A DNA stretch of 11,170 bases, from UHGV virus genome UHGV-1780727. One strand, written 5' to 3'. The position numbers are program-made. Origin of the DNA: a virus. This document shows, piece by piece, positions 1-3,000 of this stretch; positions within the stretch are counted from its first letter, which is position 1; each line of letters opens with the position of its first letter.

Positions 1-3000
1 TTAGCTGCAGTCTCGTGGGCTCGGAGATGTGTATAAGAGACAGGTGCACGTACGATCCGGTCTCCGCTTTCATTGACCGAATTAAATTCCTCACCGCGTA
101 ACACACCCTGTGCCAGCGCCTGGCTGAACTGGGTGATCACCGAGCCCGCCTCTGCCGTACTGGCACCGGAGATTTTCAGCCCTGTCGAAATGGCCTCCGT
201 CACCTTCAGCACATCATCAGCACTGTAACCATATTCACGCATTGAGGCGGCTGAGCGGGCAAACAGGGCCGCATTATCCGAAAATGCGGTGCCTGTCCGC
301 TGGCTGATATCCATCAGCACTTTCTGTGATGACGAAAATTCATCAGATGACTGCGACGCCTGTTTCAGACGGGCATTCACGGAACTCCACTCATCCGCCA
401 GTGAAATCAGGTGTCCGGTGGCAAAGGCACCGGCAAATGCGCCAGCCATTCCGACAGCAGAACCGCGAATTTCCGTCAACTGGCTGTTCAGTTCTGCCAG
501 GGCACGTCGCTGCTCCCGGGCTGCCGCAGCGGCCTGACGCCCGCCATTCTGCAGGGTCCGGTAATATTCACTGCCCATACGGGAAGCCCGCTGGATCTCC
601 GACTGGAATGACTGCGAATTTGCCGAAATTTTGATAATCAGTTCACGTAACGTCGCCATTCACCTTTCTCCGGGCGTAAAAAAACCGCCTCAGCGGTTCT
701 CATCATTCATGACTGTGCTGCAAAGCTCAGCGCGTCTTCCAGCGCCGCAAACGGATCCACCTCCGGCTTATCCTCATCCTCGCCCCAGCAGAGCATGGCG
801 TCCTTCAGTGCAACATTCATCCCCTGTGCCCCGAAAACCGCTTTCACGATCTGTGCATTACGGATATCCCCGCGCTCATCACCCAGCGGGGACACCCTGT
901 CAAACTCCATCCACATCATCGCCTCGCTCGCACTCAGGCTGTGCCGCAGTTCGGATAAGGTGCGCCCCAGACGGAGCGCAAGTCGCATCAGAAAGCGAAT
1001 TTCCGGGCGGGCTACTTTTTTCTGGCCGACTCTGCATCAGCGATCAGTTCCAGTGCCTGACGCAGCAACCGGGCATGTACCGGACCATAGACGGCCAGCA
1101 CCTGCTCACGGTCGTCCGGAGTGAACACCCGTTGCAGGTCAGTATCACACAGGACATCGCAGAACAGCGTCACATCCGCTTCCAGGTTACGGCGGGTTTT
1201 CGCCACCACCGACAGGGTATCGTCATCCTCTCCATCACCATTGAGCACTTCCTGCCACAGATACCAGGCCTCTGCCGAAGGCTCCCGCAGCACCACGCTG
1301 ACATTTCTCCATTCCGGCACCTTCACCGTTTTATGACGGAACCCCGACAGTCTGGCCAGCGCCAGTGTTTTCAGATCTTTTGCCATAAGCCTTATCCGCC
1401 CGCACCATTAACCGTTACTGTACACGCATCAGAGGTAATGCTCTGCGGCTGTTCTGCAGAATCCGTTACCTCGCAGGTATAAGCCCCCTTATCACCTGAC
1501 TGCGTATTGGCTTTACTGAAAGTGTCAGTAGTCTGTCCCTCTACCGGCTGACCATCCTTCTTCCAGGCGTGTTTATAAGGCGGCGTTCCCCCGTTGACAC
1601 TGACTGACATTGTCAGCAGCGCACCGGTATTCACGGTAAGTGTCTTCTCCAGATTTTTCACAAACGCCAGCGGTACCACATAGGACACCAGTTTACCCTT
1701 CAGGCGAAGTGAAAACGTTGCAGCCACCACGCCGTTGGTACCGGATGACCAGGTGTGCTGACGCACTTCCGCCAGGAACTTAAAGCCCTTACCGGACGGA
1801 AACTGCACCTTAAACGCATACACCGTGTCATTGTCATAGGCATCACGCAGGGCGTTCTGGGCCTGATTCAGATAAAAATTACCCGACATGGAAATCTCGG
1901 ACGACGCCCCCAGACCGTTGATGTTCTCCTGCTCTGTGGAGCAGAGCGTGGTCACATCAATATCCTGTTTCTGACCGGCGGTGAACTGGACTTCCTTGAT
2001 GGTGCAGTCCAGGCGCAGATATTCCGCCTTATCCATAGTTTCAGCAGTCGCCGGGGCAGATGAAATCATCACCTGCGTCAGCTGTGAGCGTTCATACAAA
2101 GCAGACATTCTGCCTCCTGATAATAAAAAACCCGCACGCGGCGGGGTATGGGTTTTGTAGAAAAAAGAAAAAGTCACACCGTGACCTGAAACTCCAGGGT
2201 TGCACGGTAACAGCGGTTTTCCGGAATATAGTCCTGCATTTCACTGACGGATCCCGGGGCCAGCAGCATTATGGCTTCACGGGCGTCCTGACGTATCTGA
2301 CGCGCCTGCGTCACAGTCCCGGCATAAACGTCTATCTGCACCGACACTGAGGACTCCGCCTGCCCGCCCATCACGTCCGCCGACACCGATGAAATCAGGC
2401 TGAAAACCACCCACGGAAGCGCCACCGACGGCCTGCCATCCAGCAGGGGGACCACATACGGGTACACCTGCCCGCCGGCAAGATGCGCCAGATGAGGATA
2501 CAAATCCGCCTCCGTCATCGTCTCAGTACCTCATCAATGGCCCGGTTCATCCGAGCAATCGCCACCTGTGCCGCCTGTTCACTGCGCACATCAAATGCCG
2601 GGCGCACAAACGGGTGCGGTGGCATATTCACGGTCCCCATTTCCACAAACCGCCAGTAGAAAGCATTGCGCGGGTTATCCGCCTTCATGGTGTTATCGCT
2701 GTTACCGGTGTCCGGATTAACACCCCGGATATGCACACCGGATTCCATCCCGCCATCGCGGGAGCGCCGGGAAAGGACCACCACATTGCGGCGCAGTTTT
2801 CCCCTGCGTACCGGTGCCCGTGACACCACTTCTTCTTTCAGCACATTCGCACCCGCACGGGTTGCCTCACGCAGCACCCGGTTATTTTCTGCACCACTCA
2901 GAAGCTGCAAATCGCGGCTGATGTCCTCCAGCCCCGAAAAATCCAGCAGGGTTTCGATCATTTTTCACCTCCCAGCCGACAGAGAATTTCCAGACGTCCG

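Follow-up and report, generated by a model that had tools for sequence, protein, structure and literature searches.

The window analysed here is the whole stretch of 11,170 nucleotides (nt) of the virus genome UHGV-1780727. All coordinates refer to it and all its genes are on the minus strand. The subject is a pair of overlapping tail genes, G and T, and the heptamer A_AAA_AAG in the last codons of G, at which a -1 shift of the ribosome would join the two reading frames into a G-T fusion protein. The features of the overlap, with lengths of products in amino acids (aa), are the following.

1386..1012, minus strand: G-type tail assembly chaperone gene, zero frame, 124 aa; start ATG 1386..1384, stop TAG 1014..1012
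1036..1012, minus strand: 25-nt overlap between G frame and open -1 frame; TGA 1039..1037 closes the -1 frame
1021..1015, minus strand: slippery heptamer A_AAA_AAG; zero-frame codons AAA (Lys123) and AAG (Lys124)
1014..1012, minus strand: zero-frame stop UAG directly 3' of the heptamer; possible 'shifty stop' context
1015..707, minus strand: T segment, -1 frame, 102 aa (VARPEIRFLM...AAQS); stop TGA 709..707
988..986, minus strand: ATG at which pipelines (RefSeq, GenBank) begin a separate 93-aa 'tail assembly protein T'
1041..967, minus strand: 75-nt stretch identical (0 mismatches) to a cassette of Antonov et al. 2013 (Phage_TAC cluster, fs-gene 15618692)

The G/T overlap and the slip site

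The translation of G reads MAKDLK...ESARKK and its final codons are AGA AAA AAG TAG, which is the ending given in the preliminary description of this DNA. A1021 is the third base of a G codon and the heptamer 1021..1015 is therefore in the X_XXY_YYZ phase, so that its earlier designation as a textbook -1 slippery site is correct. The -1 frame is closed by TGA 1039..1037, opens at position 1036 and stays open until TGA 709..707; joining of G to T by a -1 shift is possible only within the 25 nt from 1036 to 1012. After the shift G1015 is read twice, with GTA 1015..1013 as the first -1 codon. This gives the minus-strand product join(1386..1015, 1015..707), of 124 + 102 = 226 aa, with the predicted junction ...ESARKK/VARPEIRFLMRLALRLGRT...AAQS (the slash marks the slip). 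Both the opening of the -1 frame as far as 707 and the fusion length of about 226 aa had been read in the same way before.

The site stands alone in its surroundings. A_AAA_AAG 1021..1015 is the one in-phase X_XXY_YYZ heptamer within G, and among the 3270 codons of 12 minus-strand open reading frames (ORFs) of the window it is the only in-phase X_XXA_AAG. The shorter motif A_AAG is found in phase five times in these 3270 codons, which gives a chance expectation of about 1% for the 8-codon overlap. When phase is disregarded AAAAAAG is frequent, with 6 copies observed in the window and 1.06 expected. The copies other than that in G are:

10006..10012, 10051..10057, 6815..6821 and 10752..10758, minus strand: AAAAAAG
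2161..2167, plus strand: AAAAAAG

The three of these that lie within the examined ORFs are all in the AAA_AAA_G (Lys-Lys) phase, which is not slippery. The abundance of AAAAAAG in the window is explained by the commonness of AAA AAA Lys-Lys pairs.

Conservation, protein families and published measurement

The arrangement is found in all of 13 phage relatives, which are phages of Escherichia, Klebsiella, Cronobacter, Aeromonas, Burkholderia and Bordetella with G identities from 31% to 100%. Each has a -1 ORF of 79-102 codons after the G stop, and its overlap contains a single in-phase A_AAG that aligns at the homologous place; the arrangement is thus maintained despite sequence drift among the diverged relatives. 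A species-level scan with one genome per species, in which an alignment of 6 sequences was the query, gave 42 loci in Enterobacterales at 44-64% identity. In 40 of the 42 loci T is read in the -1 frame and the overlap contains an in-phase A_AAG; the other two carry insertions or deletions. In one of them (L168, Leclercia) a C run within G is longer by one C, with the -1 relation persisting for the C-terminal part. The other (L189:1860..1880, Candidatus Symbiopectobacterium endolongispinus) has a run of nine A (A9) that puts G and T in one frame, and could be a pseudogene or a site of transcriptional slippage. An open -1 frame at this position, which had been proposed as a check on relatives, is accordingly kept in all 13 phages and in 40 of the 42 species-level loci.

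The slip 7-mer itself is variable. Seven different ones were found at species level (AAAAAAG 18, GGGAAAG 5, GGAAAAG 6, [AG]GCAAAG 9, GGTAAAG 1 and AGAAAAG 1), and A_AAG is the core that they have in common; the single tRNA-Lys of E. coli is known to slip on this tetramer (PMC5009743). Among close relatives in IMG/VR, GCCAGAAAAAAGTAG is kept in 79 of 80, and the exception (L040) has A5 instead of A6.

Both halves of the predicted fusion belong to families of tail proteins. G matches Pfam PF06222 Phage_TAC_1 over its entire length (E=2.3e-61, 205.6 bits with a cut-off of 25, residues 1-124 on profile positions 1-124 of 124) and phrog_344, a tail assembly chaperone family (E=4e-46); no other chaperone family in Pfam matched G at E<=0.01. 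T matches PF06223 Phage_tail_T, the family of the lambda minor tail protein T (E=6e-19, 68.7 bits with a cut-off of 25.9), with residues 28-98 of the T part on profile positions 1-71 of 73, and the tail protein family phrog_337 (E=4.5e-42). A further family, phrog_14766, of 224 positions and evidently built from annotated fusions, spans both halves colinearly with G at 1-122 and T at 125-224.

A frameshift between G and T is already known for this sequence, being both catalogued and measured experimentally on an identical stretch, and is biologically nothing new. Antonov et al. 2013 tested two members of a cluster of HK97-like 'phage tail assembly chaperone' genes (PMC3711429). The cassette identical to 1041..967 gave 7% ± 0.79 frameshifting (PMC3711429, Supplementary Table S2), and the second member, of the G_GGA_AAG CCG TAA type, gave 6% ± 0.61. 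In the catalogue of Sharma et al. 2014 (PMC4066793) ECs1801 represents the cluster A_AAA_AAG_25, of 53 genes and labelled 'tail assembly chaperone; [true]', which these authors equate with GeneTack cluster #10. The preliminary description had called the site expected rather than novel, and the identity with ECs1801 and the published cassette assay bear this out.

The ECs1801 locus is the pair ECs_1801/ECs_1802 of prophage Sp9 in E. coli O157:H7 Sakai. G is identical to the window over 375 of 375 nt, and the heptamer, the stop codon, the downstream sequence and the gene order of the whole module are shared as well, so that for practical purposes the two are the same element. The C-terminus of T differs by 2 residues (SFAAQS in the window, SLAAMS in Sakai), and the host prophage of the window is the copy of Stx1a phages and O26 strains, not Sp9. 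The HK97-like pair HK544_011/HK544_012 has the same Pfam and PHROG families, the same gene position and the same -1 relation, with 63% identity in G and a fusion of 224 aa as compared with 226 aa. This homologous pair was annotated by the Hendrix laboratory as a joined coding sequence (CDS) labelled 'programmed frameshift'. The slip motif of HK544 is G_GAA_AAG and is placed 15 nt before the G stop, whereas A_AAA_AAG of the window abuts the stop. In HK544, in addition, a further small ORF separates T from the tape measure gene.

The lambda pair gpG/gpGT follows the same logic in the same gene position, likewise with a low-level -1 shift at X_XXA_AAG near the end of G and a fixed ratio of products; this mechanism and its wide conservation were reviewed by Atkins et al. 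2016 (PMC5009743). The published G:GT ratio is about 30:1 in lambda, while about 13:1 is implied by 7% for the window, in assays that are not comparable. The T domain of the window is in the lambda T family PF06223, but the lambda heptamer is G_GGA_AAG rather than A_AAA_AAG and the G part of the window is Phage_TAC_1 (PF06222). Lambda gpG is in another Pfam family than PF06222. The gamma/tau gene dnaX of E. coli has the identical heptamer A_AAA_AAG and the same reliance on the single tRNA-Lys (PMC5009743, PMC3711429). It has an upstream stimulator resembling a Shine-Dalgarno (SD) sequence and a downstream hairpin, stimulators that were not found at the window site, and it shifts at about 50% to a shorter product, whereas the window sequence shifts at about 7% to a longer one. 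The tail assembly chaperone frameshifts of long-tailed double-stranded DNA phages were described as a class by Xu, Hendrix & Duda 2004, as cited in PMC5009743. The window pair has the gene position, the -1 overlap without a convincing start of T, the in-phase slip site and the conservation by which that class is recognized.

Taken with the families, the relatives, HK544 and the 7% of the reporter, the site is very probably a programmed -1 frameshift that makes G and G-T of a lambdoid E. coli prophage of the Shiga toxin type, which has an HK97-like tail. This is the conserved frameshift of tail assembly chaperones that had been proposed. Most ribosomes would terminate at UAG 1014..1012 and give the 124-aa G, while a minority, about 7% in the reporter with the exact sequence, would slip one base back on A_AAA_AAG 1021..1015 and read the -1 frame to TGA 709..707, giving the 226-aa G-T with the junction ...ESARKK/VARPEIRFLM.... 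The slip would hinge on re-pairing of tRNA-Lys from AAG to AAA, the single tRNA-Lys of E. coli pairing weakly with AAG; at the window site the P-site tRNA should be able to re-pair as well, from AAA to AAA. If the pair works like that of lambda, the tape measure protein would be coated by G and by the G part of G-T, and the T part would recruit the major tail subunit. A fixed low rate of slipping would then set the G:G-T ratio required for correct tail assembly, with neither protein present in the virion. Homology is the basis here both for the chaperone function and for the requirement of a set ratio.

Alternatives to the frameshift and stimulation of the slip

Several observations weigh against a programmed frameshift as the source of the T protein. 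The Met codon at 988 is invariant across all relatives, and in Burkholderia and Bordetella phages the Met codon of T overlaps the G stop as ATGA. In view of these two observations some independent or coupled initiation of T is conceivable, though not as the main route. The 7% was obtained with a GST-MBP reporter that held the cassette and short flanks and not from phage (PMC3711429), and in this prophage G-T is a fusion product predicted from sequence. The sequence upstream of the heptamer, GCUGAUGCAGAGUCGGCCAG, has no SD-like motif such as dnaX-type stimulation needs at 6-17 nt before the slip site, and folding gave no RNA structure at the canonical spacing of 5-9 nt that is significant or conserved. 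The bare heptamer A_AAA_AAG shifts at 0.29%, as compared with 4.3% when it has the stimulators of IS911 (Sharma et al. 2014, PMC4066793, Table S3), and by itself does not account for the 7% of the cassette, the two reporters being different ones.

A separate T gene, in which a 93-aa protein is initiated at ATG 988 and the heptamer is incidental, is how the locus appears in databases. RefSeq, annotated with the Prokaryotic Genome Annotation Pipeline (PGAP), and most GenBank records give 'phage tail assembly chaperone' and T as two distinct CDS without a slippage join. A collection of about 15 billion proteins does not contain the exact 226-aa fusion, and G and the 93-aa T, the latter under the name 'phage tail assembly protein T', are each found on at least 1000 contigs. 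The invariant Met codon and the ATGA overlaps, which are typical of coupling, also fit such a gene. We nevertheless consider it very unlikely. The 20 nt upstream of ATG 988 pair with the anti-SD sequence at -3.5 kcal/mol, the weakest value of the 12 gene starts in the window and weaker than the background mean of -4.6, while the other starts range from -5.8 to -14.5 kcal/mol; on this pairing an independent start was rejected as the main route for T. Fusions rebuilt from 14 sequences, down to 31% identity, show conservation of V-x-x-P-x-x-F-L-M between the junction and the first Met. Conserved residues of the T frame thus reach upstream of Met 988 to the slip site, which is expected only if this stretch is translated in the -1 frame. 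The -1 relation and the in-phase A_AAG in 40 of the 42 species and in all phage relatives, where the flanks of the heptamer vary, also speak against a separate gene, as do the 7% frameshifting of the identical cassette and the avoidance of in-phase A_AAA_AAG in E. coli genes, which is strong (z = -10.1; Sharma et al. 2014, PMC4066793, Table S3) and makes an incidental copy exactly here unlikely. ATG 988 is most likely an internal Met codon of G-T, and the 93-aa 'T' CDS that begins there, annotated on E. coli contigs in their thousands, most likely does not yield a protein of its own.

The fusion could also arise before translation, if RNA polymerase added one A in the A6 run so that some of the messages encode G-T in frame. 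The slip site is a homopolymeric A run, variants in run length are found in databases (A5 in L040), and the A9 run in L189 does fuse G and T in frame; since the protein is the same by either route, the product is uninformative. A6 is, however, shorter than the runs reported to be productive, which have more than seven A (A9 in Thermus dnaX; PMC3711429), and many relatives keep the -1 arrangement with three or four A's (GCA_AAG, G_GGA_AAG, G_GAA_AAG). Slippage of RNA polymerase is implausible at such A3-A4 sites, whereas slippage of tRNA-Lys on A_AAG is well documented (PMC5009743). Transcriptional slippage is therefore highly improbable. The remaining alternative is a chance juxtaposition, in which the Lys-Lys end of G lies beside an unrelated ORF and no fusion is made. 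It would draw on the frequency of AAAAAAG in the window, but the copy in G is the only one in slippery phase, it sits in the 25-nt overlap, the arrangement is conserved from 31% to 100% identity and the sequence frameshifts in vivo in a reporter. Coincidence can for all purposes be excluded because of the conservation and the published assay.

If the T protein is made by a programmed frameshift, the native context seems to contribute to a slip rate above that of the bare heptamer, with the reservation that the two reporters differ. A downstream stimulatory RNA structure had been suggested and was looked for by folding. Stretches of 95 and 101 nt around or after the site gave z = -0.9 and -1.5, and the stretch from +4 to +48 in 8 lineages gave z from -0.96 to +0.99, none of them significant for a structure at canonical spacing. 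A weak stem, CGGAAA/UUUCUG plus 3 base pairs (bp), begins 6-7 nt after the heptamer. For the cluster A_AAA_AAG_25, Sharma et al. 2014 scored the SD sequence 'N' (PMC4066793, Table S4) and gave a hairpin ddG of 0.020 ± 0.023, which is not above average (Table S8).

Folds of 70 nt do appear structured (z = -2.5 in the window and -2.0 in 689R5), and the source is a GC hairpin at 980..961 on the minus strand, UGCGCUCC-GUCU-GGGGCGCA, about 34 nt past the slip site. It recurs in enterobacterial relatives. The hairpin overlaps the codons of the conserved T peptide ALRLGR (ALRxGR in relatives), and its distance to the slip site varies, being 30 nt further in Burkholderia and Bordetella phages. It was rejected as a canonical stimulator since it tracks the ALRxGR codons and its spacing is not conserved, and is probably a by-product of coding.

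The zero-frame stop follows AAG directly in 23 of the 40 species-level loci, and does so in every one of the 11 loci in which re-pairing of the P-site codon is impossible (GCA, GUA, or GAA preceded by A). The association between a tetramer-only site and an abutting stop has a Fisher p of 8e-4, a value not corrected for phylogeny. True heptamers lie 0-30 nt from the stop (species-level loci L157-L198). It is possible, if somewhat doubtful, that a zero-frame stop directly after AAG is a functional stimulator in this family, a 'shifty stop' in the sense of Weiss et al. 1987 as cited in PMC5009743. The tRNA-Lys on the P-site codon AAG would slip back to AAA while a UAG or UAA in the A site waits for its release factor. 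If true, this would account both for 7% as against 0.29% with no evident RNA stimulator and for the abutment of AAG and stop in the 23 of 40 and 11 of 11 loci. The family would then have two interchangeable modes, tandem slippage on heptamers away from the stop and stop-assisted slippage of a single tRNA. The pattern in the species-level loci suggests that the latter may operate in part of the family. At the window site tandem slippage and stop-assisted P-site slippage would give the same protein.

The practical value of these results lies solely in a correction of annotation. G-T should be entered as a joined CDS with ribosomal slippage, in the form of the join given above; the separate CDS in RefSeq and GenBank and the absence of the exact fusion from the protein collection agree with the earlier remark that automated annotation misses this frameshift.

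The surrounding module and other features of the window

The G/T pair is flanked by two tail genes, and its place between them is in line with the tail-module annotation which the frameshift had been said to support.

2108..1392, minus strand: major tail subunit gene, tail tube with C-terminal Ig-like domain, directly upstream of G
1..659, minus strand: 5' part of the tape measure gene, ATG 659..657; runs off the window; RefSeq has 'phage tail tape measure protein' there

The major tail gene matches Pfam Phage_tail_2 and Ig_2 and the major tail protein family phrog_158 (E=5e-118), and the identical prophage in RefSeq has a 717-nt CDS that matches it. The remainder of the window is a head module with the small and large terminase, a protease-capsid fusion ORF, portal, connector and head completion genes, an HK97 gp10-like gene and a gp17-like tail completion gene. 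The G/T finding also confirms that the window comprises the module for head and tail morphogenesis of a lambdoid prophage whose tail is HK97-like. Over 901 nt around the slip site the window shows 100% identity with Stx1a-converting phages as well as with prophages in E. coli O26 and other enterohaemorrhagic E. coli. Copies at >=90% identity occur in 1246 out of 5426 complete E. coli genomes, and a single genome can have as many as 7.

A hairpin, AACCGC-UGAG-GCGGUU, followed by a U run (678..698, minus strand), lies in the gap from the stop of T (707) to the ATG of the tape measure gene (659). It is extendable to 9 bp, with -10.8 kcal/mol for the 43-nt stretch folded, and HK544 has an annotated terminator at the equivalent place. 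A scan with a terminator consensus did not flag this hairpin and U run. It looks like a leaky intrinsic terminator.

At the left end of the window positions 9..42 on the plus strand read GTCTCGTGGGCTCGGAGATGTGTATAAGAGACAG, which is the Nextera/Tn5 read-2 adapter. This left end is therefore the end of a contig contaminated with adapter. The adapter makes up the last ~40 nt of the tape measure ORF, which runs into it, and the similarity to Sakai ends at window position 44.

The portal region has a run of five G (G5) in the window and of six (G6) in Sakai Sp9. In the G6 form the portal and the next ORF are one ORF of 860 aa (ECs_1795), while in the G5 form the portal stops after 454 aa, with an ATGA overlap, and is followed by a 353-aa ORF (3642..4703) that has its own ATG and a good SD sequence and is without a Pfam match. 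In RefSeq the G5 form is flagged as a pseudogene of portal that is 'frameshifted'. Each form is common, with 23 (G5) and 37 (G6) exactly matching contigs in IMG/VR, and the difference may reflect mutation, phase variation or recoding. Within the 353-aa ORF, 4108..4478 is a tandem repeat of 162 nt (54 aa) in 2.3 copies with 97% identity. Sakai has one extra copy of the 162-nt repeat, seen as a gap of 54 aa in the alignment.

A single ORF of 645 aa (6276..8213, minus strand) contains the domains of both prohead protease (Peptidase_S78) and major capsid protein (Phage_capsid). It lies between the large terminase and the portal, an unusual order for a lambdoid head module, and is labelled 'phage prohead protease' in Sakai.

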